DNA of 64,000 nucleotides from Candidatus Magasanikiibacteriota bacterium (lineage in GTDB: Bacteria; Patescibacteriota; Patescibacteriia; Magasanikbacterales; GWA2-37-8): assembly GCA_026396515.1 (NCBI GenBank), contig JAPLWQ010000003.1, positions 163,569 through 227,568 of the forward strand. The letters are read 5' to 3'. The notes beneath the pieces are model-generated. The model did no database searches, had not been told where the DNA came from, and worked only from the letters and a program-made list of their open reading frames with translations. The first letter of the stretch is position 1. Each line of letters opens with the position of its first letter. Positions 3,847 to 63,657 of this stretch are shown piece after piece. A program made the translations under genes and the position numbers.

Positions 3847-4437
3847 ATGAAAAATTTATTTAAGGCAGTACTATTCGTGGTTGTAATATTGGCGTTTGGA
3901 GCGATGATCGGCTGGCTTTTGGCAAAAGACGCTAAGCCGGACCGGACTGTCTCCGGCCAGACAATTTTATCGGCGTTACGCGAGCGCGGATTTTTGGTGA
4001 CTGAAACCAGCGTGTCCACTGTGGCCACAACAATTATAGACAATGATTCAAGCATTTGGAAAAAATTGTTCTGGGGCCAGGAGATCCGGGCGTCGGCGGT
4101 GATGGAAGTAAATTTGGGTGTTGACCTGGAAGAAATGAAAGCTGAAGACATTCAAATGTCCGGCGGAAAAATTACTGTTACCATCCCCGGGGCAAAAATT
4201 TTCAATTCGCGGTTGGTTGGGGATATAAATGTGGAAAACAAGCAGGGGATACTGAAGCGAATATTGGAGAATGATGACGGATATAATCAAGCCATGGCCG
4301 AGTTGATCAAGCAGGCCGAGTCAGCGGCCACTTCCACACTGATGATGGAGGCGGCGAATGATAAAGCCAAGGAGGAAATAAAGCGTCTGGTGGGTTATAT
4401 GGCGCCGGACAAAGAGGTAACAGTGACGATAAAATAG
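3847..4437 (+). CDS. DUF4230-like membrane-anchored protein
   Basis: N-terminal TM helix. Overall architecture resembles DUF4230 family proteins. Assigned from memory of the family pattern only. Confidence 0.45.
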   Translation: MKNLFKAVLFVVVILAFGAMIGWLLAKDAKPDRTVSGQTILSALRERGFLVTETSVSTVATTIIDNDSSIWKKLFWGQEIRASAVMEVNLGVDLEEMKAEDIQMSGGKITVTIPGAKIFNSRLVGDINVENKQGILKRILENDDGYNQAMAELIKQAESAATSTLMMEAANDKAKEEIKRLVGYMAPDKEVTVTIK

Positions 4438-4450
4438 TAAAATTCTAACA

Positions 4451-4483
4451 AAAAAACTCCGGATTTTGGTCCGGAGTTTTTTA
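4451..4483 (+). terminator. Rho-independent terminator
   Basis: ctccgga-ttttggt-ccggag followed by tttttt. Confidence 0.8.
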
Positions 4484-4545
4484 TTTGACATTTGCTGTAG
4501 CTAGTGGTAGTTTTTTATTTGGTGCTGAACAAAAGGAGGCATGCA

Positions 4546-5154
4546 ATGAGGTTAGATATGTCCGAAAAACAGCTCCTCGCGGGCACGAGGGCTTACAGAC
4601 GCATTCATCCGGAAGAAAAGGACCAGCGCGCCGCTATGTTGCGCCGTCAACGTTCTGCCAACGCCACCACGGACGTTCCGGATGTCGAGGAACTCATGAA
4701 CATCTACGGCGCTGACCTTGTCGAAGCGATCGGTGAATACGATTGGAAGGACCTGTTCGCGAAGTGCGCGACCCCCATCGGACGCGACGAGATTACATTC
4801 TGGCTGGCTCAGTGTTCGTGTCCGGAAGCCAGACGCACGCTCTCTGCGATGTTCTACGATGGGGCCGTGGACTTGTACTGCCTCGTCGGAGCAAAACGGT
4901 GTCTCTGTGTTGAGACCCATCACCCGCAACTGTCCATGTGGGACTGCAAAATTTACCCTTCGGACACCGCGCTCGATTACATGGCAGACGATGTTGACGA
5001 GGTCGCAGACAGTAAACGAACATGCGACTTTGCCGGTGATTCAGACGTTCTCTCCGTTATCTTTGCCGAATGGGTTTTCGGACGGCCGAAAAGCACGGCG
5101 GCCCGCAGCTTCATCTGTTCGGTCTGCGAAAGAGCCGAGGGGCCGCAGATCTGA
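4546..5154 (+). CDS. Hypothetical Cys-rich protein encoded in GC-rich cassette 1
   Basis: AGGAGG SD sits 6 nt before ATG at 4546. About 58% G+C against a 35-40% background. No known motif. Alternative-frame ORFs (4718-5335 and others) look like GC artefacts (Arg/Ser-rich). Confidence 0.45.
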   Translation: MRLDMSEKQLLAGTRAYRRIHPEEKDQRAAMLRRQRSANATTDVPDVEELMNIYGADLVEAIGEYDWKDLFAKCATPIGRDEITFWLAQCSCPEARRTLSAMFYDGAVDLYCLVGAKRCLCVETHHPQLSMWDCKIYPSDTALDYMADDVDEVADSKRTCDFAGDSDVLSVIFAEWVFGRPKSTAARSFICSVCERAEGPQI

Positions 5155-5180
5155 CGCTTCGCTCTTTGAAGAATTTTTAT

Positions 5181-5213
5181 GCCCGGCAGGATTCGTTCCT
5201 GCCGGTTTTTTTA
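5181..5213 (+). terminator. Rho-independent terminator after the cassette-1 gene A
   Basis: cccggcagg-attcgtt-cctgccgg followed by ttttttt. Confidence 0.75.
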
Positions 5214-5244
5214 TATTTCATACCAATATCGTCAACATTGGCCT

Positions 5245-5272
5245 TGACAAAACCCATATTTTATGCTATACT
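5245..5272 (+). promoter_or_regulatory. Near-consensus sigma70-type promoter (TTGACA, 16 nt spacer, TGcTATACT) for gene B of cassette 1
   Basis: Direct reading. -35 TTGACA at 5245-5250, extended -10 at 5264-5272. Confidence 0.55.
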
Positions 5273-5324
5273 CTGCTCAGACAACGTGGTTTTTTTGGTG
5301 TTTTCACCCTAAAAAGGAGGAAAG

Positions 5325-5597
5325 ATGGCAAGTAGAGCCAGAACGCCGATGAAGAATTTCCGATTGACGGACATCAGGTCAGGACAGCTCGTCAGCAACG
5401 GCCTGGTGCGAGCCGTATCGGCCGAAGCTGCATCGCGCAACTTTGCGCTGATCAAGTTCAGAGACGAGAGCCTTATGGTTTTCTTCCGCGCCGACGAGGT
5501 TGACATGATGGGCGTGAATATCGAAAATGCCTGCCCCGAGTGCGGTTTGTCCGACCCGAACATTGGCGACGAATTTCCCTGCCCCAACTGCACCTAA
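5325..5597 (+). CDS. Hypothetical small protein with a C-terminal zinc ribbon (CPECG...CPNC), in GC-rich cassette 1
   Basis: AAAAAGGAGGAAAG SD then ATG. 90 aa. GC-rich. Own promoter and terminator. Confidence 0.45.
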   Translation: MASRARTPMKNFRLTDIRSGQLVSNGLVRAVSAEAASRNFALIKFRDESLMVFFRADEVDMMGVNIENACPECGLSDPNIGDEFPCPNCT

Positions 5598-5619
5598 CAA
5601 CCCACCGCTCATTCCCGCC

Positions 5620-5650
5620 AAACCCGCATCCCGCGGGTTTTACGTTTTTT
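5620..5650 (+). terminator. Rho-independent terminator
   Basis: aacccgc-atc-ccgcgggtt followed by a T-rich tail. Confidence 0.65.
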
Positions 5651-5689
5651 ATGGAAAAGTGATACAATACCAGCAATTAATATATACTT

Positions 5690-7420
5690 ATGTATAAAAA
5701 AATCTGCCTGGTATTTTTTGTTGCCGGTTTGCTGTTAATCGCTTCTCCGGTTTTTGCCGAAGAAAAAATTGATAAATTTGTCACTGACATTCAGCTTCAT
5801 AGCGACGCCACCATTAATATTGAAGAAAGCATTGCTTATGATTTTGGCGATGCCGAGCGTCACGGAATATTTCGCGATATTACAATCGGTTACAAGGCGC
5901 GCGGTGGAAATTATAAATTGCGGGTGTCAGACATTTCGGTGGTTGATGAAAAAAATAATCCTTACACTTTTACCACTTCATATTCAGGCAGTAATTTGCA
6001 GATTAAAATCGGTGATGCCGAAACGCTCATAACCGGTAAGCACATTTACCGCATTCGCTATACGGTGGGGCGCGCCATAAATTATTTTAAAGACCACGAC
6101 GAGTTGTACTGGAATGCCACTGGTAATGGTTGGGAAGTGCCGATCGGTGAAGCCGAGACCATTGTCCGACTTGAGAGCGATTTGCCGGATAGCGATGTAA
6201 CGCGGACATGTTTTTTCGGCCCCTATGGCAGCACTTCGGTATGCGATATGTCGGTAGTAGAGGAAAACAAGGTGGAAGCCGGCGGTTCGGTTTCCGCTGT
6301 TTTATTTAAAGCCAAGAATCTCGGTTCGTATGAAGGGCTGACTGTGGTGGTGGGTGTACCGGTTGGCACTATTCAAAAACCGCCTCTCACGGAGACTATT
6401 TGGGAAATTATCCGCGACAACGGCATTTTGTTGTTGCCGGTTATTATTTTTCTATTGCTTTTCAGGCGTTGGAAAAAATATGGCAAAGACGCTAAGGGTA
6501 GAGGAACGATCATTCCCGAATATGAAGCACCGGACAATTTAGCGCCGGCCGAGGTTGGCACTCTTTATGACAACCGGGCCGACCGGACCGATGTATCGGC
6601 GCAAATTATTCAGCTTGCGGTTAATGGCTACTTAAAAATACGGCGGGAGGAAACCGGCGCGGTATTTAAGAGTACTGATTATGTTTTTACGAAATTGAAA
6701 CCTTCAGTTGATCTGACGAAAAGTTTCGACAAGGAAATAATGGATAATCTGTTTGAAAAAGGGGAAGTGGTTAAATTATCCGATTTGAAATATGAGTTTG
6801 CTTCCGCCATGCAGAAAATAATCAAGAATCTGTATGAAGACCTGACCAAAGACGGGTATTACAAAAACAATCCGATGATGACCAAAGTGAAATATTTGGC
6901 CGGTAGCTGTCTGACTTTTTTCCTGGCTTTTTTTATCGGAGCATTTTTCGGATTTTTGGGAATATTCTCCATTATTGTTGCGGCATTGATTATTTTAGTA
7001 TTTGCATTTATCATGCCGGCTTTAACCCAAAAAGGCGCGGAAACAAAAGAGAAAATTCTTGGGCTGAAGCTGTATATGACTGTAGCAGAGGAAGCGCGAA
7101 TAAAATTTCACAATGCGCCGGAAAAAAATCCGGAAAGGTTTGAGAAATTATTACCCTATGCCATGGTGATGAAAGTGGAAAAAGAATGGGCCAAGCAGTT
7201 TGAAGGGATATACAATATTCAGCCGAAGTGGTATGAGGATCCGTCGCATCAGGGTATGTTTAACGCGGTTCTGCTCACCAGCAGTTTGTCCAGTTTTGAC
7301 ACTACGGCGGCGTCCACGCTCGGCGCCACGGTTTCCTCTTCTGCCTCGTCCGGCGGGAGCGGTTTTAGCGGCGGAGGTTCGGGCGGCGGATTTGGCGGCG
7401 GTGGGGGAGGTAGTTGGTAG
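5690..7420 (+). CDS. DUF2207 domain membrane protein
   Basis: Signal peptide, large extracellular N-domain, central TM helices, then a C-terminal SGGSGFSGGGSGGGFGGGGGG tail. All are characteristic of DUF2207. Confidence 0.7.
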   Translation: MYKKICLVFFVAGLLLIASPVFAEEKIDKFVTDIQLHSDATINIEESIAYDFGDAERHGIFRDITIGYKARGGNYKLRVSDISVVDEKNNPYTFTTSYSGSNLQIKIGDAETLITGKHIYRIRYTVGRAINYFKDHDELYWNATGNGWEVPIGEAETIVRLESDLPDSDVTRTCFFGPYGSTSVCDMSVVEENKVEAGGSVSAVLFKAKNLGSYEGLTVVVGVPVGTIQKPPLTETIWEIIRDNGILLLPVIIFLLLFRRWKKYGKDAKGRGTIIPEYEAPDNLAPAEVGTLYDNRADRTDVSAQIIQLAVNGYLKIRREETGAVFKSTDYVFTKLKPSVDLTKSFDKEIMDNLFEKGEVVKLSDLKYEFASAMQKIIKNLYEDLTKDGYYKNNPMMTKVKYLAGSCLTFFLAFFIGAFFGFLGIFSIIVAALIILVFAFIMPALTQKGAETKEKILGLKLYMTVAEEARIKFHNAPEKNPERFEKLLPYAMVMKVEKEWAKQFEGIYNIQPKWYEDPSHQGMFNAVLLTSSLSSFDTTAASTLGATVSSSASSGGSGFSGGGSGGGFGGGGGGSW

Positions 7421-7484: not shown

Positions 7485-10400
7485 ATGAGTTTACGAAAAA
7501 AAAAGAAATTGCCCGTAAAAAGAGATGCCAAATTTAAGGGTGGTCATAAATTTATTATTTCCGAAAGTGAAGAAATGAATCAGGTGCTTATCAACACTAT
7601 GCTTGACGGCGTGGCGATTGTTGATTTTACCGGTAAAGTCATATATTTTAATCCGGCGGCTGAAAAGATTTTTGAAATTGATAATCCGAAAGTGCTGATG
7701 GGGAAAAATGTTTTAAAATATTTATTACCCGCTTCCAAATTGGTGGCGATAAAAGACATGGTTAATGTCAGTTTGGGCAAGGGCGGTTATTTGCAGAGCT
7801 ACCAGATTAGAACGGCCAGGGGGCGCGTTATTTGGATTGAAAATATAGGGACGAAAATTTCTTATGGAGGCAAGTCTGTAATGATAATGTCATTTCGCGA
7901 CATTTCCGAGCGAAAGAAATTTGAAGAGAAAATTGAGGTTGAAGCGAAAAAACTTTCCATTCTCAATGATATTATTGTTGCATCCAATGAAAGTATAAAT
8001 TTGGCGGAGCTGTTGGAATCAATTTTAATTTTGGGCATGCGTTTGCTGAATTTTGATGCGGCTGGCATTTACTTGGTGGACCAAAGCGGAGAATTTGCCG
8101 ATGTGGTTAAAAGTAAAAATATTCCGGAGGGTTTTTTACGGCGGGTAGGTCGTGTGCGCGTAAAAGACAAACCATATAGTAGAATATTTGTAAAAGGAGA
8201 ATCAATTGTATCTGAATATTATGAGAAATTTGTTGCCAAAAAACGTGACACTTTTGGGTTTAAATCTTTAATATCCGTTCCATTGGTTGTAGGAGATAAG
8301 GTGATAGGCGCTTTAAATTTTGTAAGCAAACGTCGCCAAACTATCTCCGCAGATGAACGTATTATGGTTGAGTCCATTGGCAAGGAGCTTGGGAGCACTG
8401 TTAAAAAAATGCAGATGGAAAAGGATCTTATCGATAGCGAGAAGCGATATAGGGTAATTTTTGAAAATACGATGGATATAATTTATTCGTTTAATCCAAA
8501 TGGTAAGGTTATTTTTGTTAGCCCCAATGTAACGCTCTGGGGGTATCAGACAAAGGAGGTGATCGGAGCCGATATTTTTAAATTCGTTCATCCCGATGAT
8601 GTTAAGAATGTTAAGCGTGAATTGCAAAAAACTATTAAAACAAGCCAGACATTTACCACGACGTTTCGCTTGGTAAGGAAAGATGGCACCTTTTTTTACG
8701 CCGAAGAGTTTGGTAAACCGGTTTATGATGGAAATGGCCGTCTGAGCGCTTTTACCGGGGTAATACGCGATATTACCGGTAGAAAAATGTTTGAAGAAGA
8801 GTTAAAGTGCTATAGTGAACGAATGAGAATAATGTTTGAAGATGCGCCTGATGCATATTATATCAGCAGTCTGAAGGGCATTCTTTTGGATGGTAATAAG
8901 GCGGCTGAGAAGATTACCGGATACGAAAGAAAAGAGTTGGTTGGTAACAGCTTTATCAACTTGAGAAAGCTTGTCGCCCCCGGACAAAAATCAAAGATAC
9001 TTTCTTTGCTGTCAAGAAATGTTAAAGGTGAGTCAACAGGCCCGGACGAATTTGAATTGATTAAAAAGGACGGCACTTCCATTTCTGTTGAAATTACTAC
9101 TCATCCTGTAAAAATAAATGGCAAATCGATGGTCCTTGGAATAGCCCGAGACATTTCACAGCGTAAACTAGTTGAAAATTCTTTAAAGGTCAGTGAAGAA
9201 AGATTTTCTAAAGCTTTTCAGTCGTCACCATATGCGAATATCATGACTCGTCCGACGGATGGCAAGGTCATAGATATTAATGCGTCATTTACCGAAATAG
9301 CGGGTTTTAAGCGGTCCGAGGCGATTGGGAAGACGACTGAAGAATTGGGTTTGTGGGCGAATTTTAGCGAGCGCGATAAAGTTGTTGACGACTTGTTAAA
9401 AGGCGTCCCCGTTAAAGGCCGAGTGATACAATTTAGGATAAAGTCGGGTGAAATAATAATTGGAAATTTTTTCGCGGAGCTTATTACTGTCGGACAGGAA
9501 AAAATTATACTTTCAAGCATAAACGATATAACTGAAAAAGTGAAAGCGGAAGAAAAGCTGCGCTTGAGCGAGGAGCGATATCGCAACGTGGTTGAGAAAG
9601 CCGCTGAATCGATTGTAATCGCCCAAGACGGAAAACTAAAATTTTTTAATCCCCAGGTACTTTTAATTACAGGGTATTCCAGAAAAGAATTGGAAGCCAT
9701 GCCTTTTATTATGCTTGTGCATCCGGATGACAGAAAAATGGTTGCCGAACGATACACAAAGCGTTTAAAAGGTGAAAAAACTGTGGAGACATACCCCTTT
9801 AGAATTGTTAATAAACGCGGTGAACAGATATGGGGAGAGATTCGATCGGTATTGATTACGTGGGAGGGAAAGCCGGCAACGCTCAGTTTTTTACAGGAGA
9901 TCACTGGGCGTAAACGGGCTGAGGATGCTTTAAATGCAAGGGTAGTTGAAGTTGAAAAAGCAAAAAAGGCGATGGTAGATGTATTGGAAGATATAGGGCG
10001 GGAAAAAAGTATTTCCGAATCTTTAGCAAAAGATTTGGAAAAATTTAAGCTTGCAGTGGATGGGGCTTCTGATCTCATCGTGATAACCGATATTAATGCA
10101 AAAATAGTATTTGCCAATCGGGCGGCTGAGAGAATTACCGGGTTTAAAATCGATGAAATGATTGGTCATGATCCGGGCGAATTATGGGGCGGTCAAATGA
10201 ATACGGAATATTATAAACGCATGTGGCAGATAATTAAGAAGGATAAAAAAGTATTTAGCGGTGAATTTATCAACAAAAGAAAAAACGGTGAAACCTACGA
10301 TGCTGAAGTGCATGTATCACCGATTATGGACAAAAGCGGTGATATAATTTTCTTTGTAAGCATTGAAAAAGATATTACCCAAGCTAAAGAGGTTGACCGC

Positions 10401-11081
10401 ATGAAAACCGAATTTGTTTCTATCGCTTCGCACCAGCTCCGTACGCCTCTCACCACGATGAAGTGGTACGCTGAATTGTTAGTTGCAGCCGAGAAAGATT
10501 TAAGTAAGAAACACTCTGACTATGTTCACAGAATCTATGACAGTAGTTTGAAAATGGTGCGTTTGGTGAATGACCTCCTGAATGTGTCGCGAATTGAAAC
10601 GGGTAAGAAATTTGCGATTGAGAAAAAAAGTACTGACATGGTTTCTCTGGTGAAGCGGGCGATCGCCGATCAATCGGTAGCCGTTATGCAAAGCGATATT
10701 AAGATTGAATTGGTAGATTGGCCGGAACATATCAAAATGATGGTGGATGAGGAAAAGATGTACCAGGTATTCCAAAATTTGATTAACAACGCCGTTAAAT
10801 ATTCTAATCCGGGAGGCAAGGTTGAAGTGAGGATAGAATTAAGCGATGGAAACAGCATTTTTTCCGTTAAAGATATGGGTTTGGGGATACCGTTAAATCA
10901 ACAGGGTCGTGTTTTTGAAAAATTCTTTCGTGGAGAAAACGTGACCAATGCCGGTAAAGCGGGTACCGGCCTTGGTTTATATATTGTGAAAGCAATTGTT
11001 GAAGGTCATGGGGGAAGAATCTGGTTTGAATCCGGTAAAAAAACCGGTACGATATTTTATTTTGAATTATCTAAAAAATGA
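7485..11081 (+). CDS. Multi-PAS/GAF sensor histidine kinase (1198 aa)
   Basis: At least five PAS-like repeats. HisKA H-box is IASHQLRTPL. HATPase N, G1 and G2 boxes are present (NLINNAVKYS, DMGLGIP, GTGLGLYIVK). Confidence 0.85.
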   Translation: MSLRKKKKLPVKRDAKFKGGHKFIISESEEMNQVLINTMLDGVAIVDFTGKVIYFNPAAEKIFEIDNPKVLMGKNVLKYLLPASKLVAIKDMVNVSLGKGGYLQSYQIRTARGRVIWIENIGTKISYGGKSVMIMSFRDISERKKFEEKIEVEAKKLSILNDIIVASNESINLAELLESILILGMRLLNFDAAGIYLVDQSGEFADVVKSKNIPEGFLRRVGRVRVKDKPYSRIFVKGESIVSEYYEKFVAKKRDTFGFKSLISVPLVVGDKVIGALNFVSKRRQTISADERIMVESIGKELGSTVKKMQMEKDLIDSEKRYRVIFENTMDIIYSFNPNGKVIFVSPNVTLWGYQTKEVIGADIFKFVHPDDVKNVKRELQKTIKTSQTFTTTFRLVRKDGTFFYAEEFGKPVYDGNGRLSAFTGVIRDITGRKMFEEELKCYSERMRIMFEDAPDAYYISSLKGILLDGNKAAEKITGYERKELVGNSFINLRKLVAPGQKSKILSLLSRNVKGESTGPDEFELIKKDGTSISVEITTHPVKINGKSMVLGIARDISQRKLVENSLKVSEERFSKAFQSSPYANIMTRPTDGKVIDINASFTEIAGFKRSEAIGKTTEELGLWANFSERDKVVDDLLKGVPVKGRVIQFRIKSGEIIIGNFFAELITVGQEKIILSSINDITEKVKAEEKLRLSEERYRNVVEKAAESIVIAQDGKLKFFNPQVLLITGYSRKELEAMPFIMLVHPDDRKMVAERYTKRLKGEKTVETYPFRIVNKRGEQIWGEIRSVLITWEGKPATLSFLQEITGRKRAEDALNARVVEVEKAKKAMVDVLEDIGREKSISESLAKDLEKFKLAVDGASDLIVITDINAKIVFANRAAERITGFKIDEMIGHDPGELWGGQMNTEYYKRMWQIIKKDKKVFSGEFINKRKNGETYDAEVHVSPIMDKSGDIIFFVSIEKDITQAKEVDRMKTEFVSIASHQLRTPLTTMKWYAELLVAAEKDLSKKHSDYVHRIYDSSLKMVRLVNDLLNVSRIETGKKFAIEKKSTDMVSLVKRAIADQSVAVMQSDIKIELVDWPEHIKMMVDEEKMYQVFQNLINNAVKYSNPGGKVEVRIELSDGNSIFSVKDMGLGIPLNQQGRVFEKFFRGENVTNAGKAGTGLGLYIVKAIVEGHGGRIWFESGKKTGTIFYFELSKK

Positions 11082-11142
11082 TTCCGCGGTGCGGGATCCT
11101 CTCGGTCCGTTTTCAGGCGGATAGAGATATTAAATTTTGTAT

Positions 11143-11511
11143 ATGAAAGAGGTACTAGTAGTTGAAGACGAAGTAGAGTTGGCTGAGGTGATTGCCTCTC
11201 AACTTAAGGAGGAAAAAATTGGAGTGCGCATCGCCAGAGATGGAGTGGAAGGCTTGGAAATGGCGTTAAAACTGCACCCGGATTTGATTTTGCTGGATAT
11301 TATTATGCCGAAAATGGATGGCATGACCATGTTGGCTCATTTGCGAAAAGATAGTTGGGGCAAGGACGCCAAGGTTATTTTGTTGACCAACTTGAGTGAT
11401 AATGAAAAAGTAGCCGAGGCAATAAAACAGCAGTCTTATGATTATCTGGTAAAAGCAGATTGGAATATCCGGGATGTGGTGAAATTGGTTAAAGAAAAAT
11501 TGGAAGAGTAA
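11143..11511 (+). CDS. Single-domain response regulator (REC only, CheY-like)
   Basis: VVEDE...D...DIIMPKMDG...K receiver signature with no output domain. An upstream TTG (11137) is an alternative start. Confidence 0.8.
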   Translation: MKEVLVVEDEVELAEVIASQLKEEKIGVRIARDGVEGLEMALKLHPDLILLDIIMPKMDGMTMLAHLRKDSWGKDAKVILLTNLSDNEKVAEAIKQQSYDYLVKADWNIRDVVKLVKEKLEE

Positions 11512-14637: not shown

Positions 14638-15428
14638 TACCTTATTTTTTTTGGAATGCAATTCACATTGGTCCCTTGACACTACAGGTCTGGGGCCTTT
14701 TTGTGTCGGTCGGAGCGCTTATAGCGCTTATAATTGCGCAAAAAATTGGACGAACACATAATTTATCCAAAGAAACTATTTTGGATTTATTTTTTTGGCT
14801 GCTTGTATCCGGCTTAATCGTCGGCAGGTTATTCTATGTAATTTTTTATAACCCATTATTTTTTTTGCAGAATCCACTGGAGATATTTATGGTTTGGCAC
14901 GGTGGCGCATCTTCGCTTGGCGGTTGGGTTGGCGCGGGCATTGCGGCATATATCTATTGTAAAATGCATAAGCTGAATTTGGTGAATTTTCTGGGTTATG
15001 CCGATGTTCTTGCCTTGGGTTTATGGGCGGGCTGGGCGATCGGGCGCATCGGTTGTTTTCTGATCCATGATCATATCGGTGTCTTGTCGAATTCCTTTTT
15101 AGCGGTGGCGTATCCGGGTGGTGCTCGCCTGGACCTTGGCTTGTCAGAATCTATTTTAGCAGCGATCATTTTTATCATATTTATTTTATTGTACAAGAAA
15201 ATTATTCATCAGCCTGGTCGGATATTGGCGTATTCATTTATGATTTATTCGGCGGCGCGTTTTGCTCTGGATTTTTTTAGAGCAACGGATATAGAGGGTT
15301 TTGATGTGCGATATGCTTTGCTGACTCCCGCTCAATGGGGTATGCTTATCCTATTTGGTGGGTTGACTATTTGGTTAATTCGGGATAAAATCAGTCAGCG
15401 TAAAAAAATATCAGGAAGGGTCGCCTAG
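14634..15428 (+). CDS. lgt: Prolipoprotein diacylglyceryl transferase
   Basis: Seven TM helices. WHGGASSLGG (WxGGMSxHGG-like) and GRIGCFLIHDHIG motifs. ATGA overlap with the LOG gene. Confidence 0.75.
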   Translation: MIPYFFWNAIHIGPLTLQVWGLFVSVGALIALIIAQKIGRTHNLSKETILDLFFWLLVSGLIVGRLFYVIFYNPLFFLQNPLEIFMVWHGGASSLGGWVGAGIAAYIYCKMHKLNLVNFLGYADVLALGLWAGWAIGRIGCFLIHDHIGVLSNSFLAVAYPGGARLDLGLSESILAAIIFIIFILLYKKIIHQPGRILAYSFMIYSAARFALDFFRATDIEGFDVRYALLTPAQWGMLILFGGLTIWLIRDKISQRKKISGRVA

Positions 15429-15501
15429 TGGTCGATGGCGCACGCTTGGAAAGCGTGTAAACCGAAAGGTTTCGAGGGTTCGAATCCCTCTCCTTCCGCC
15501 A
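15414..15501 (+). tRNA. tRNA-Ser (anticodon GGA)
   Basis: Manual fold. Acceptor GGAAGGG/TCCTTCC, 3-bp D-stem, anticodon stem CACGC/GCGTG with loop TTGGAAA, long variable arm, T-arm GAGGG-TTCGAAT-CCCTC, encoded CCA. Overlaps the last 15 nt of lgt. Confidence 0.85.
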
Positions 15502-15635: not shown

Positions 15636-16028
15636 ATGGCGAGGATGATATCTGTTGTGGTGCAAATCAGAAAAGGTTCAACCTATGGTGAATGGCTCGA
15701 AATTCGGGAAGCGATGAACCGGCAGGAAATCGCGGAAAGGGAGGTGGAAAAGGCGCTTAGCGCCCTGATTGTTTTGGCGGCGGTCAGACCAGGTTGCCCT
15801 GAACGCGGCAGCCAGACTGATGCCCCGGCAAAAGAGTTGTGGCAGGATGTATTCTTCTTCGTCCGGCATGGAGCGCTATCGCCCAGGGAAGTGTCCGAGA
15901 ACCTGCGCCAGCTCAGAAAACTGGGAGTATTTTTACCAATTCCGGCCCGAGTCAGGGACAGCTGGCCGCGGCTTCACGCCGTTGCCGGTAATCATGGAGG
16001 TGTCGATGGATCCAGGAGACTGTTGTAG
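15636..16028 (+). CDS. Hypothetical protein in GC-rich cassette 2
   Basis: AGAGGAGGTGAG SD 5 nt before ATG. About 58-60% G+C. 130 aa. No motif. Immediately 3' of tRNA-Ser. Confidence 0.4.
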   Translation: MARMISVVVQIRKGSTYGEWLEIREAMNRQEIAEREVEKALSALIVLAAVRPGCPERGSQTDAPAKELWQDVFFFVRHGALSPREVSENLRQLRKLGVFLPIPARVRDSWPRLHAVAGNHGGVDGSRRLL

Positions 16029-18815: not shown

Positions 18816-18848
18816 CAAAAAATGACCCCCAGAAATGGGGGTTTTTTG
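18816..18848 (+). terminator. Rho-independent terminator
   Basis: gaccccc-agaaat-gggggt then tttttt. Confidence 0.8.
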
Positions 18849-18852
18849 ATAT

Positions 18853-18880
18853 TGACTCGGATGATAGTCGTTGGTATAGT
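18853..18880 (+). promoter_or_regulatory. Promoter. TTGACT, 16 nt spacer, TGGTATAGT (extended -10).
   Basis: Direct reading. It drives the small transcription unit upstream of hrcA. Confidence 0.5.
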
Positions 18881-18918
18881 GTCCAGACACTGAACATCGC
18901 CACCAAAGGAGGGTATGT

Positions 18919-19056
18919 ATGTACGCATTTCGAACCAGGGATACCCTGGAGAAAGAGTGCATTTCGCTCATTTTTCTCGTTTTCATAATCAGTGCGAGTA
19001 TCGCCATTAGCGTGGTTGAAATAATCACCGGAAAAAATGACGAGTGCCATGAGTAG
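18919..19056 (+). CDS. Putative 45-aa single-TM peptide (MYAFRTRDTLEKECISLIFLVFIISASIAISVVEIITGKNDECHE)
   Basis: AGGAGG at 18907-18912, 6 nt before ATG 18919. Hydrophobic core of about 22 aa. Own promoter and terminator. Below the 60-aa ORF-track cutoff. Confidence 0.35.
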   Translation: MYAFRTRDTLEKECISLIFLVFIISASIAISVVEIITGKNDECHE

Positions 19057-19083
19057 GAGCGAGTAGGTGAAGACAGAAAACAA

Positions 19084-19116
19084 GCGGTTGCGCCGGTCAG
19101 CGCAGCCGTTTTTTAT
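19084..19116 (+). terminator. Rho-independent terminator (gcggttgcgc-cggtca-gcgcagccg then ttttttatttg)
   Basis: Direct reading. One mismatch in the stem. Confidence 0.6.
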
Positions 19117-19176
19117 TTGAATATGGAACAAAAATACAGTCTTGACTCCGCGTAATCGCTAAAGAACGATATGGGG

Positions 19177-62438: not shown

Positions 62439-62468
62439 AAAAAAATGCCCCCAGGAGTGGGGGCTAAA
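62439..62468 (-). terminator. Rho-independent terminator for the HD gene (minus strand reads agcccccac-tcc-tgggggc-atttttt)
   Basis: Direct reading. Confidence 0.75.
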
Positions 62469-62498
62469 GAATTTCTATCTCGAAGTCAGTGGGGGGGG

Positions 62499-63236
62499 TT
62501 ACAGGAGGTTCTTCTTCTCCTGCAGATTCAGGTAGGTCTCGACGATAACGCGGTACATGGCGAGACGCGGTTCGCTCCAGTCATTCATGTAGCGGTCGCT
62601 GAGCAGGTGCCGAACCGGCGCAATGATGTGCGCGGTGGCGCAGTAGTTGTAGGATAGATGCGCGACTAGACTGTCGTTCTTGTAGACGTTCATCATCTCC
62701 GGCGTGCAGCCGTTGATCATTAGCTCGCGCAGATGATCGGCCGTATAGTTGTCCGACAGGATCGGTTTGCCCTTTAGCGCCAACGCGGCTCGAGCCGCGC
62801 CGTCCGGACTTGCGGCGTCCGCGTGGTCGCAGACGCACAGCAGGCCGAGCAAGACCTCTTTCAGGTCTTTCGCCTCGTTGATGCCGATGGCGCGCAGGCC
62901 GCGGCTGTGGTGCGTGACGGCGAAGTGCACCGCCTCGTACTCGTCCGTGGTCAGATCCTCGAGAGTTATCTGCCGGAACACCTCCGCGGACACCATGGCG
63001 TGATCGCGCGTCTTGTCGATGGCCCGACCGATGTCGTGGATGTCGACCGCTGCGTGCAAACACCTGATGACCCGCGAGTCCTTGACCTGCACGTCGAAGA
63101 TGTTGTTGCAGACCTCGCGGACGTGGCGCATGTGCCGCATTCCATGGATCAGTTCATCCGCAAGTCCCGCTTCGAGGTACTTTTCGGAAACATAACTCCA
63201 GATCTGATCGGCCATTTTGATCTCTTCTATCTGCAC
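62499..63236 (-). CDS. HD-domain metal-dependent phosphohydrolase in GC-rich cassette 3
   Basis: H...HD...H...D motif (HGMRHMRH, AAVDIHDIGR, VTHH, CDHAD). About 60% G+C. GTG start preceded by AAGGAGGT. Confidence 0.75.
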   Translation of the reverse strand: MQIEEIKMADQIWSYVSEKYLEAGLADELIHGMRHMRHVREVCNNIFDVQVKDSRVIRCLHAAVDIHDIGRAIDKTRDHAMVSAEVFRQITLEDLTTDEYEAVHFAVTHHSRGLRAIGINEAKDLKEVLLGLLCVCDHADAASPDGAARAALALKGKPILSDNYTADHLRELMINGCTPEMMNVYKNDSLVAHLSYNYCATAHIIAPVRHLLSDRYMNDWSEPRLAMYRVIVETYLNLQEKKNLL

Positions 63237-63423
63237 GTGACCTCCTTGCCACTGTTTAAGTGGACTTTTTTGTGAACAGCCCTGTGGGGCCGTAGTTGAA
63301 TGAGCATGGAATTGGATATTTTACAAAAATATCGACAGTTATTCATAGCATAGATTAGCTGATTCGTCAAGGTTGTATCGGGTAAGTGAGGACTTTTGCT
63401 ACTCGGCCCCACCCATCCAAAAC

Positions 63424-63449: not shown

Positions 63450-63454
63450 TTTAG

Positions 63455-63528
63455 TCGGGGTGACAGGACTTGAACCTGCGACCTCATCGTCCCGAACGAT
63501 GCGCTCTAGCCAACTGAGCTACACCCCG
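63455..63528 (-). tRNA. tRNA-Pro (anticodon CGG)
   Basis: Manual fold of the reverse complement. Acceptor CGGGGTG/CACCCCG, anticodon stem CATCG/CGATG with loop TTCGGGA, T-arm GCAGG-TTCAAGT-CCTGT. No encoded CCA. Confidence 0.85.
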
Positions 63529-63583
63529 AAAATTGGATTGATTATATTACTGGATGGACAAAAAGTCAATGTAATTCACAAAG

Positions 63584-63657
63584 TCGGGGATACAGGACTT
63601 GAACCTGCGGCCTCATGCACCCCATGCATGCGCTCTAGCCAACTGAGCTAATCCCCG
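63584..63657 (-). tRNA. tRNA-Pro (anticodon GGG)
   Basis: Manual fold. Acceptor CGGGGAT/ATCCCCG, anticodon stem CATGC/GCATG with loop ATGGGGT. The T-arm is identical to the neighbouring tRNA-Pro. Confidence 0.85.

Follow-up and report, generated by a model that had tools for sequence, protein, structure and literature searches.

Two Shine–Dalgarno-led, GC-rich orphan genes at a variable chromosomal site of Candidatus Magasanikbacteria

The DNA analyzed here is a 64 kb stretch (hereafter, the window; 44.1% G+C) of a contig of Candidatus Magasanikbacteria (Parcubacteria, candidate phyla radiation, CPR). Near its beginning, between a gene of the DUF4230 family and a gene for a DUF2207 membrane protein, lie two small open reading frames (ORFs), ORF1 and ORF2, each provided with its own promoter, Shine–Dalgarno (SD) site and terminator and each distinctly richer in G+C than its surroundings. 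We refer to such a gene together with its signals as a cassette. Proteins identical to the two, both annotated as hypothetical (NTW66_02995 and NTW66_03000), occur in a metagenome-assembled genome (MAG) of Candidatus Magasanikbacteria. The coordinates of the genes and signals are collected in Table 1.

Table 1. Features of the ORF1/ORF2 locus and of two further GC-rich cassettes (positions are those of the window; nt, nucleotides; aa, amino acids; GC3, G+C content at third codon positions; NNC, codons ending in C)
Feature	Position	Strand	Remarks
DUF4230 family gene	3847–4437	+	upstream flank, conserved left anchor; Pfam DUF4230, E = 2.7e-15
Terminator hairpin of the DUF4230 gene	4457–4484	+	A-run before, T-run after; read from sequence, inverted repeat I1
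ORF1 promoter	4485–4513	+	−35 TTGACA 4485–4490, 17-nt spacer, extended −10 TGgTAGTTT 4505–4513
ORF1 SD site AAGGAGG	4533–4539	+	6 nt 5′ of ATG
ORF1	4546–5154	+	202 aa, 10 Cys; NCBI start = Met5, 198 aa
ORF1 intrinsic terminator	5183–5212 (hairpin 5183–5205)	+	9-bp stem, 7 GC pairs, T7
ORF2 promoter	5244–5272	+	TTGACA-17-TATACT plus TG extension
ORF2 SD site AAGGAGG	5314–5320	+	4 nt 5′ of ATG
ORF2	5325–5597	+	90 aa, ends CPECG...CPNC; NCBI start = Met9, 82 aa
ORF2 intrinsic terminator	5620–5650 (hairpin 5620–5640)	+	conserved in L002 and L011
DUF2207 membrane protein gene	5690–7420	+	conserved right anchor; Pfam DUF2207 and DUF2207_C, synteny
130-aa orphan cassette	15636–16028	+	55.7% G+C, GAGGAGG before ATG, own terminator
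245-aa gene cassette	62499–63236	−	59% G+C, GC3 81%, NNC index 0.82; AAGGAGG at 63241–63247

The G+C content of the locus rises to 59.7% at 4515–5069 and to 58% at 5311–5668 when computed in 300-nt windows, which across the whole stretch average 44.0% (standard deviation 4.4). A preliminary description of this DNA had reported some 1.1 kb at about 58% G+C between flanks of 35–40%. The peak is certainly there (58–60% in 300-nt windows), but the figure does not hold for 4485–5650 as a whole, which has 53.1%, with 56.7% in the ORF1 coding sequence, 55.7% in that of ORF2 and 40% in the spacer between them; nor are the flanks as AT-rich as had been stated, the two adjoining genes measuring 47.0% and 45.0%. 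The GC3 values of ORF1 (66%) and ORF2 (71%), versus a median of 46%, rank third and second, respectively, among the 58 ORFs of the window.

Both ORFs are real protein-coding genes under purifying selection. Divergence between orthologs is greatest at codon position 3, smaller at position 1 and smallest at position 2, and homology at the protein level (E = 1e-29 to 1e-79) supports coding as well. Between the near-identical related loci L013 and L014, ORF1 differs by seven synonymous and no nonsynonymous changes (nonsynonymous divergence, dN, of 0), while for ORF2 the ratio of dN to synonymous divergence (dS) is 0.24. The two frames, of 202 and 90 aa, the shorter ending in CPxCG...CPNC, are the ones the preliminary description had singled out, and it had rightly taken the overlapping ORFs in other frames for artifacts of GC richness: the long ones (4718–5335 on the + strand and 4552–4929 on the − strand) were rejected as genes, as they are not conserved in orthologous loci.

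Public annotations of two related loci contain comparable ORFs. At L011 (4650–4952, − strand) and L013 (5700–6140, − strand), spurious antisense ORFs of 100 and 146 aa have been called over the ORF2 homolog, whose true + strand frame occupies 4671–4928 in L011 (with a GTG start) and 5793–6056 in L013. These calls are a gene-calling artifact of the GC-rich region.

Regarding the translation starts, the SD spacing and the conserved N-termini (MxxDIS... in ORF1, MA followed by basic residues in ORF2) agree on positions 4546 and 5325; the shorter NCBI calls listed in Table 1 are therefore probably truncated. In an independent assembly, the two genes were called at 202 and 90 aa.

A scan of the window with Rfam returned three tRNAs only, none of them at the locus, and no RNA family at ORF1 or ORF2. 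A structured noncoding RNA was also rejected on the basis of transcript folding, which gave z-scores of −2.0 and +0.3. The preliminary description had further considered a chimeric contig. This is excluded, because 12 kb spanning both composition junctions recur with 100% identity in a Logan assembly from a different run; the same junctions also occur in orthologous loci from other samples.

The TTGACA-type promoters, the strong SD sites and the hairpin terminators with T-runs that had been described for each gene are all present, and they recur in related loci. The layout of the ORF1 promoter, TTGAC(A/T)-17-TGnTAnnnT, is found in L001 and L002, as is its terminator hairpin, CCGGCAG...CTGCCGG; L011 has CCGGCGG...CCGCCGG at the equivalent place. 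The ORF2 promoter, which with a score of 11/12 is jointly the best within the 64 kb, is nearly identical in L002 and L011. Between the two genes, in a 170-nt spacer, the ORF1 terminator is followed by ORF2's own promoter, and this layout is identical in L002 and L011. By their sequence signals, ORF1 and ORF2 are separate, monocistronic transcription units.

Searches of Pfam, NCBIfam, PADLOC and PHROGs yielded nothing significant for either protein, and neither did single-sequence or profile searches of the PDB sequences. The best Pfam matches of the ORF2 family were below threshold, namely Anti-TRAP (E = 0.0018, one member) and HypA (E = 0.011, three of seven members); the two matches of the window's own ORF2 reached 11–14 bits, versus a cut-off of 27. 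The ORF1 protein is acidic (isoelectric point, pI, 4.8) and soluble, and the ORF2 protein (pI 5.0) is soluble too; neither has a signal peptide or a membrane segment.

The ORF1 family is characterized by two motifs, WLxRQxxANATxDxPD at the N-terminus and LSAIFAEWxxGRPKSxxARxFIxxxC at the C-terminus; short forms of 121–129 aa keep only the N- and C-terminal motif parts. The preliminary description had called the protein Cys-rich, and this is true of the window sequence but not of the family, because C194 is the only Cys that is invariant across 12–14 homologs. For the same reason, a conserved zinc site in ORF1 was rejected. AlphaFold (AF2) gave a predicted local distance difference test score (pLDDT) of 42 with a 2-sequence alignment and of 81.8 with a 14-sequence alignment, the latter with a predicted template modeling score (pTM) of 0.77. 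In the latter, confident model of ORF1, the N-terminal part is predicted to be helical; the rest comprises three short strands, an acidic linker of low confidence and a pair of helices at the C-terminus. When this model was searched with Foldseek against the PDB and BFVD, no fold match was obtained.

The N-terminus of the ORF2 protein is basic; a short alpha/beta part (as read from the sequence) and a C-terminal zinc-ribbon motif, CxxCG-x(10-12)-CPxC, follow, and the four cysteines of this motif (C70, C73, C86 and C89) are invariant in seven homologs. The protein most likely binds nucleic acid or protein through its zinc ribbon. The DNA encoding the two zinc knuckles (5522–5591) contains a 22-nt direct repeat (CGAAaatGCCTGCCCCgAgTGC / CGAAtttCCCTGCCCCaAcTGC, 77% identical), which hints at an internal duplication behind the two knuckles.

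With the ORF1 profile as query, HMMER retrieved nine relatives (E down to 3e-79) from an exhaustive search of 1.84 billion representatives. We read the contigs, of at least 2 kb, of eight of these matches (the ninth, P0010, and the short contigs of P0012, P0014 and P0016 were left out), and the eight showed related gene neighborhoods of CPR type. Relatives of ORF2 were found by word-indexed searches, tblastn and contig look-ups. A scan of GTDB genomes identified two sister MAGs only. As far as sequence comparison can tell, ORF1 and ORF2 are two new protein families, confined to a Magasanikbacteria clade.

The loci compared come from different samples and assemblers. The two families co-occur at the DUF4230–DUF2207 site in at least six related Magasanikbacteria genomes. 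The order DUF4230–ORF1–ORF2–DUF2207 is seen in the window, L002, L011 and L015; L013 and L014 have extra genes before DUF2207, and in L005 other genes stand between DUF4230 and ORF1 and two more between ORF1 and ORF2. ORF1 without ORF2, directly after DUF4230, occurs in L001 and L009. All told, an ORF1-family gene lies immediately 3′ of DUF4230 in seven of the eight loci holding both, the exception being L005. The DUF4230–DUF2207 site is a variable hotspot.

Some of the related loci deserve a closer description. In L005 (3802–6582), the site is occupied by six small genes (120, 93, 88, 112, 87 and 193 aa), which include the diverged ORF2 and ORF1 homologs and several of which have SD cores. 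In L007 (5085–6378) and L008 (5160–6390), short ORF1-family proteins (125–129 aa) are encoded by the third gene of a GC-rich, orphan three-gene operon (GC3 65–82%) with one promoter and one terminator; the operon of L007 adjoins a tRNA-like sequence at about 6490–6560. Genes for a large histidine kinase of PAS/GAF type (1198 aa) and for a 124-aa stand-alone receiver protein (7485–11511 in the window) come after the site in every relative; L001 and L009 lack DUF2207 and ORF2, and there the two genes stand directly after ORF1.

The unusual composition of the cassettes is shared by their relatives. At every locus the ORF1-family gene has 51–61% G+C and a GC3 of 53–82%, while the neighboring genes have a GC3 of 31–59%; for the ORF2 family, the corresponding values are 51–62% and 58–80%. 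The GC3 range of 53–82% holds for all eight other species-level loci with the long form of ORF1, seven of which also show the flanking DUF4230 gene. It is the most divergent ORF1 members (28–32% identity; L005, L007 and L008) that have the highest GC3, 78–82%. Synonymous sites are saturated between orthologs (dS > 1.3 or not computable). Both families evolve fast, ORF1 identity being 49–53% where the adjacent DUF4230 is at 82–87%, and the pairwise identities of ORF1 and DUF4230 are weakly correlated (Spearman 0.21).

No relatives of ORF1 or ORF2 were found in IMG/VR, among the INPHARED phages or PLSDB plasmids, or in pattern scans of JGI metagenomes. Direct repeats of the att type around 4300–5800 did not exceed chance, there is no tRNA at the ORF1/ORF2 site and no integrase among the neighboring genes, and the flanking genes are of a chromosomal housekeeping type (DUF4230, DUF2207, CorA, PAS kinase, GatCAB).

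The preliminary description had favored a foreign origin, from a high-GC host or a phage, while pointing out that homologs of equal GC in sister genomes would indicate native genes. Such orthologs do exist, at the same site, and no viral, phage or plasmid relatives were found in the collections searched; recent foreign origin is not supported by these comparisons. Neither does a single ancient, slowly ameliorating import fit, because synonymous sites are saturated and the most divergent members are the most GC-rich. What gene order and composition show, when compared across the clade, is that ORF1 and ORF2 are native genes, inherited at one chromosomal site within a group of Magasanikbacteria. 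The alternative offered earlier, that of unusual native genes under a different mutational regime, comes closer to what is observed.

The cassettes also stand apart in their ribosome binding sites. Within 20 nt of the start, AGGAGG is found in 5 of the 58 long ORFs of the window, and four of these five are its four most GC3-rich genes, that is, ORF1, ORF2 and the two other GC-rich genes of Table 1 (15636–16028 and 62499–63236). The motif is thus present in 4/4 GC-rich cassette genes versus 1/54 others (Fisher p = 1e-5). Across ten related loci, an SD core 5 nt or longer precedes the ORF1-family gene in every case (10/10, AGGAGG being conserved in all ten) and the ORF2-family gene in 4/5, with the L015 start corrected. 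For the related loci as a whole, the count is 13 of 15 cassette-family genes versus 6 of 88 other genes (p = 2e-10), and several of the SD-bearing genes among those 88 are themselves orphans of GC-rich islands.

The ordinary genes look quite different. In 110 of them (from the window and L001–L015), A+T makes up 80% of the 20 nt preceding the start, GGAG or GAGG occurs in only four, and position −1 is T in 88%, in a context of WWT|ATG; TAAT and ATAA words are common upstream. None of the cassette genes whose start was read has T at −1. The leaders of the ordinary genes suggest a non-SD mode of initiation.

These observations have to be set against what is known of anti-SD usage. Of the Parcubacteria 16S rRNAs surveyed by Tsurumaki et al. 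(2022, PMC9297842), only 48% were found to contain the anti-SD motif; the study does not state the status of Magasanikbacteria. No rRNA gene is present in the window or in any of the loci compared. The ribosomes of Bacteroidia are SD-blind, their anti-SD being sequestered by bS21, bS18 and bS6, and a strong SD is retained by rpsU (PMC7797042, PMC9976891, PMC13000453); the blindness applies unless bS21 is absent (PMC9976891, PMC13000453). We found nothing specific in the literature on GC-rich orphan cassettes or SD usage in Magasanikbacteria.

Codon usage was compared by pooling 11 ORF1-family and 6 ORF2-family genes against 15 flank genes. The GC excess results mainly from a change of T-ending to C-ending codons (NNC over NNT): TTC accounts for 62–76% in the cassette genes versus 23% in the background, TAC for 57–67% versus 27%, AAC for 62–74% versus 29%, ATC for 54–60% versus 22%, GTC for 37–51% versus 15% and CTC for 28–33% versus 8%. 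Accordingly, third-position C amounts to 36–46% versus 22% in the background, and third-position G stays steady at 25–30%. In both families AAG is used in place of AAA and the codons TTA and ATA hardly occur; usage within the four-fold boxes of Ala, Gly, Pro and Arg is almost that of resident genes. All three codon positions are shifted, and so is the amino acid composition, with Arg at 8–9% versus 3.6% and Lys and Ile lower.

Conserved residues of the ORF1 family use NNC codons in 70% of cases and variable residues in 52% (odds ratio, OR, 2.1, p = 0.0016, homologs being treated as independent), while the same test in the flank genes showed no effect (OR 0.72 and 0.97). Such an enrichment is the pattern expected of selection for accurate decoding by tRNAs with GNN anticodons. 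Reference genes for ribosomal proteins or elongation factors were absent from the window and loci, including an extension beyond the window.

The resident codons themselves are split by their first two bases. Those with G or C at both positions already end mostly in G or C (GCC plus GCG 71%, CCG 68%), and those with A or T at both end mostly in A or T (TTT 77%, AAA 71%).

Taken together, the SD, leader and codon contrasts distinguish the cassettes from resident genes in four linked signals, namely promoter with leader, SD site, codon usage and terminator. The cassettes are a small, previously undescribed class of SD-led, GC-rich genes in an SD-poor CPR genome.

Two further members of this class lie in the window (Table 1). 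The 130-aa orphan is located directly after a tRNA-Ser gene (15414–15501) and has no match in Pfam, NCBIfam or PADLOC. The 245-aa gene, the most extreme of the GC-rich cassettes, has its own promoter-like site and terminator hairpin (62440–62470) and adjoins two tRNA-Pro genes (63454–63657); its protein gives weak HD-domain and Cas3-HD matches only.

A short ORF at 18919–19056 (+ strand), which is not GC-rich, encodes a 45-aa hydrophobic peptide, MYAFRTRDTLEKECISLIFLVFIISASIAISVVEIITGKNDECHE, within the otherwise empty spacer 18816–19170. It is preceded by a promoter, TTGACT-17-TATAGT with TG (18852–18880), and by AAGGAGG (18906–18912), and is followed by a terminator-like hairpin near 19085–19112, so that the element spans 18852–19112 on the + strand.

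With moderate confidence, we favor the view that selection in the resident cell maintains the whole cassette package, which would serve high or separately controlled expression; the expression level and the selective cause are what we infer. In ORF1, ORF2 and the two other GC-rich orphans, a sigma-70 promoter with a −35 element and an extended −10 element would produce a transcript with a leader of about 25–50 nt. Initiation would then be driven by pairing between the canonical AGGAGG, with no T at −1, and the anti-SD, and elongation would be made accurate by NNC codons matched to GNN tRNAs; GC-rich codons ending in C and the use of Arg over Lys would belong to the same package. Finally, an intrinsic terminator would close each cassette cleanly. 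The products would be small acidic cytoplasmic proteins, made at a high level or under separate translational control.

Several observations weigh against this view. ORF1 and ORF2 evolve fast, which is unusual for highly expressed genes. The rise of Arg, the decrease of Lys and Ile and the preference for AAG over AAA resemble general GC pressure, or a bias against AT-rich words, more than translational selection alone, and the Akashi-type NNC test was not significant for ORF2. Some Parcubacteria lack the anti-SD in their 16S rRNA (PMC9297842). Furthermore, the weak correlation between ORF1 and DUF4230 identities leaves room for allele replacement at the site.

A bolder reading, which we consider doubtful, would see in the cassettes a second translation channel: the bulk of the genes would be translated without SD, from an AT-rich leader with U at −1, and the cassettes would depend on SD/anti-SD pairing and C-ending codons. 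If true, this would amount to an SD-specific regulon or a specialized-ribosome system in CPR bacteria, evolved independently of the bS21 circuit of Bacteroidia; in its extreme version, the genes would be tuned for the ribosomes of a host.

Among the competing explanations, the one that holds up best, though we judge it rather improbable, is that the cassettes are foreign and moron-like, having entered the clade ancestor, or entering repeatedly, from a GC-richer, SD-using pool (phage, plasmid or host bacterium) as ready-made promoter–SD–gene–terminator units that keep the signals of the donor. Their anatomy fits the definition of a moron, with a promoter and terminator of their own and a G+C content unlike that of their neighbors (PMC3594210). 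An import would also agree with the shift of all three codon positions and of the Arg/Lys ratio, with the weak congruence between ORF1 and DUF4230 distances and with the variability of the hotspot, where L005 has six small genes and L014 extra ones; moreover, the short ORF1 forms belong to a GC-rich three-gene operon beside a tRNA-like sequence in L007, and tRNA genes border on two further cassettes of the window. However, no relative was met outside CPR chromosomal contexts (nine HMMER matches, eight contexts read), the viral, phage, plasmid and JGI metagenome searches came back empty, the flanks are housekeeping rather than phage genes, and att-like repeats are missing. A single old import should have ameliorated by now, given the saturated synonymous sites and the high G+C of the most divergent members, and the four-fold codon boxes follow resident usage.

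It is hardly likely, in our opinion, that translation of the cassettes falls to anything outside the bulk resident system, be it a sub-population of ribosomes with an exposed anti-SD or, after transfer, a GC-richer host cell. The idea draws on the fact that all four signals are canonically bacterial, unlike those of resident genes, on the patchy detection of the anti-SD in Parcubacteria (48% of 16S rRNAs, PMC9297842) and on the precedent of Bacteroidia ribosomes, SD-blind unless bS21 is absent (PMC9976891, PMC13000453). Yet it is purely inferential, with no transfer machinery linked to the locus, and the four-fold codon boxes match resident usage; a resident ribosome using a conserved SD is the simplest reading.

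The preliminary description had also proposed a two-gene toxin/immunity or effector-type module, and a role of this kind, whether in toxicity and immunity, in defense or as a secreted effector, seems improbable to us. The genes are indeed small, fast-evolving and clade-restricted, they sit in a variable hotspot, and the two families co-occur in six genomes. But each gene is a separate transcription unit with its own promoter and terminator, ORF1 is found without ORF2 in L001 and L009, and two genes intervene between them in L005. PADLOC, Pfam, NCBIfam and PHROGs gave no matches, the two acidic, soluble proteins carry neither a signal peptide nor a membrane segment, and ORF1 shows a dN of 0 between L013 and L014.

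As to an artifact, G+C islands of AT-richer genomes often turn out to be RNA genes and a jump in composition could mark a mis-join, but the identical 12 kb Logan assembly, the recurrence of the arrangement in other samples, the Rfam result of three tRNAs only, the folding z-scores (−2.0 and +0.3), the codon-position pattern and the homology, which show coding, make either form, chimeric assembly or noncoding RNA misread as ORFs, extremely improbable.

CPR bacteria have many unexplained small proteins, and translation start in these organisms is poorly known. Here, a single genome opposes about 95% of genes without SD and with T at −1 to a few conserved, strongly promoted, GC-rich orphans with perfect SDs. 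The locus makes it possible to test whether the anti-SD is still in use on the ribosomes of Parcubacteria, and for which genes, and whether selection, rather than recent transfer, can keep the GC content and codon usage of a locus well away from the equilibrium of the genome. It also advises caution in calling horizontal transfer from composition, and it makes the ORF1 and ORF2 families candidates for abundant or specially regulated CPR proteins.

Compared with known systems, the pair differs from type II toxin–antitoxin modules, in that ORF1 and ORF2 are not co-transcribed, do not always co-occur and gave no match to toxin, antitoxin or defense families in the databases searched. ORF2 resembles small C4 zinc-ribbon proteins in ending, after a short alpha/beta part, with two invariant CxxC knuckles 10–12 residues apart. 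Its layout of an alpha/beta part and a zinc ribbon is also that of HypA, to which three of the seven family members show the weak matches mentioned above; unlike HypA, however, ORF2 has no metal motif at its N-terminus, only the knuckles are alike, and no Pfam or PDB match is significant.

With acquired genomic islets, the cassettes share outlying G+C, GC3 and codon usage, as well as the orphan status of their genes. In contrast to such islets, ORF1 and ORF2 are syntenic and equally atypical in sister species, have no mobility genes or flanking repeats, and show a codon shift that is confined to C-ending and weak–weak codons instead of a uniform rise in GC.

Phage morons such as gene 15 of HK97 are similar in anatomy, in that an own sigma-70 promoter and an intrinsic terminator bracket each gene (PMC3594210). 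Like morons, the cassettes differ in G+C from their flanks (56–57% versus 45–47%) and sit between conserved genes at a site of varying content. Unlike morons, ORF1 and ORF2 lie outside any phage or prophage, have housekeeping flanks and are without relatives in IMG/VR, INPHARED and BFVD; and because their composition is conserved across deeply diverged orthologs, they are no fresh import.

A final parallel is offered by rpsU of Bacteroidia (Flavobacterium johnsoniae), where a genome that is nearly SD-free likewise contains a few genes with a strong, conserved SD (PMC7797042, PMC9976891, PMC13000453). In our case, the SD-led genes are GC-rich orphans instead of rpsU, and the lineage is Parcubacteria. 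The native start contexts differ too, with T at −1 in an AT-rich leader here and upstream adenines in Bacteroidia.

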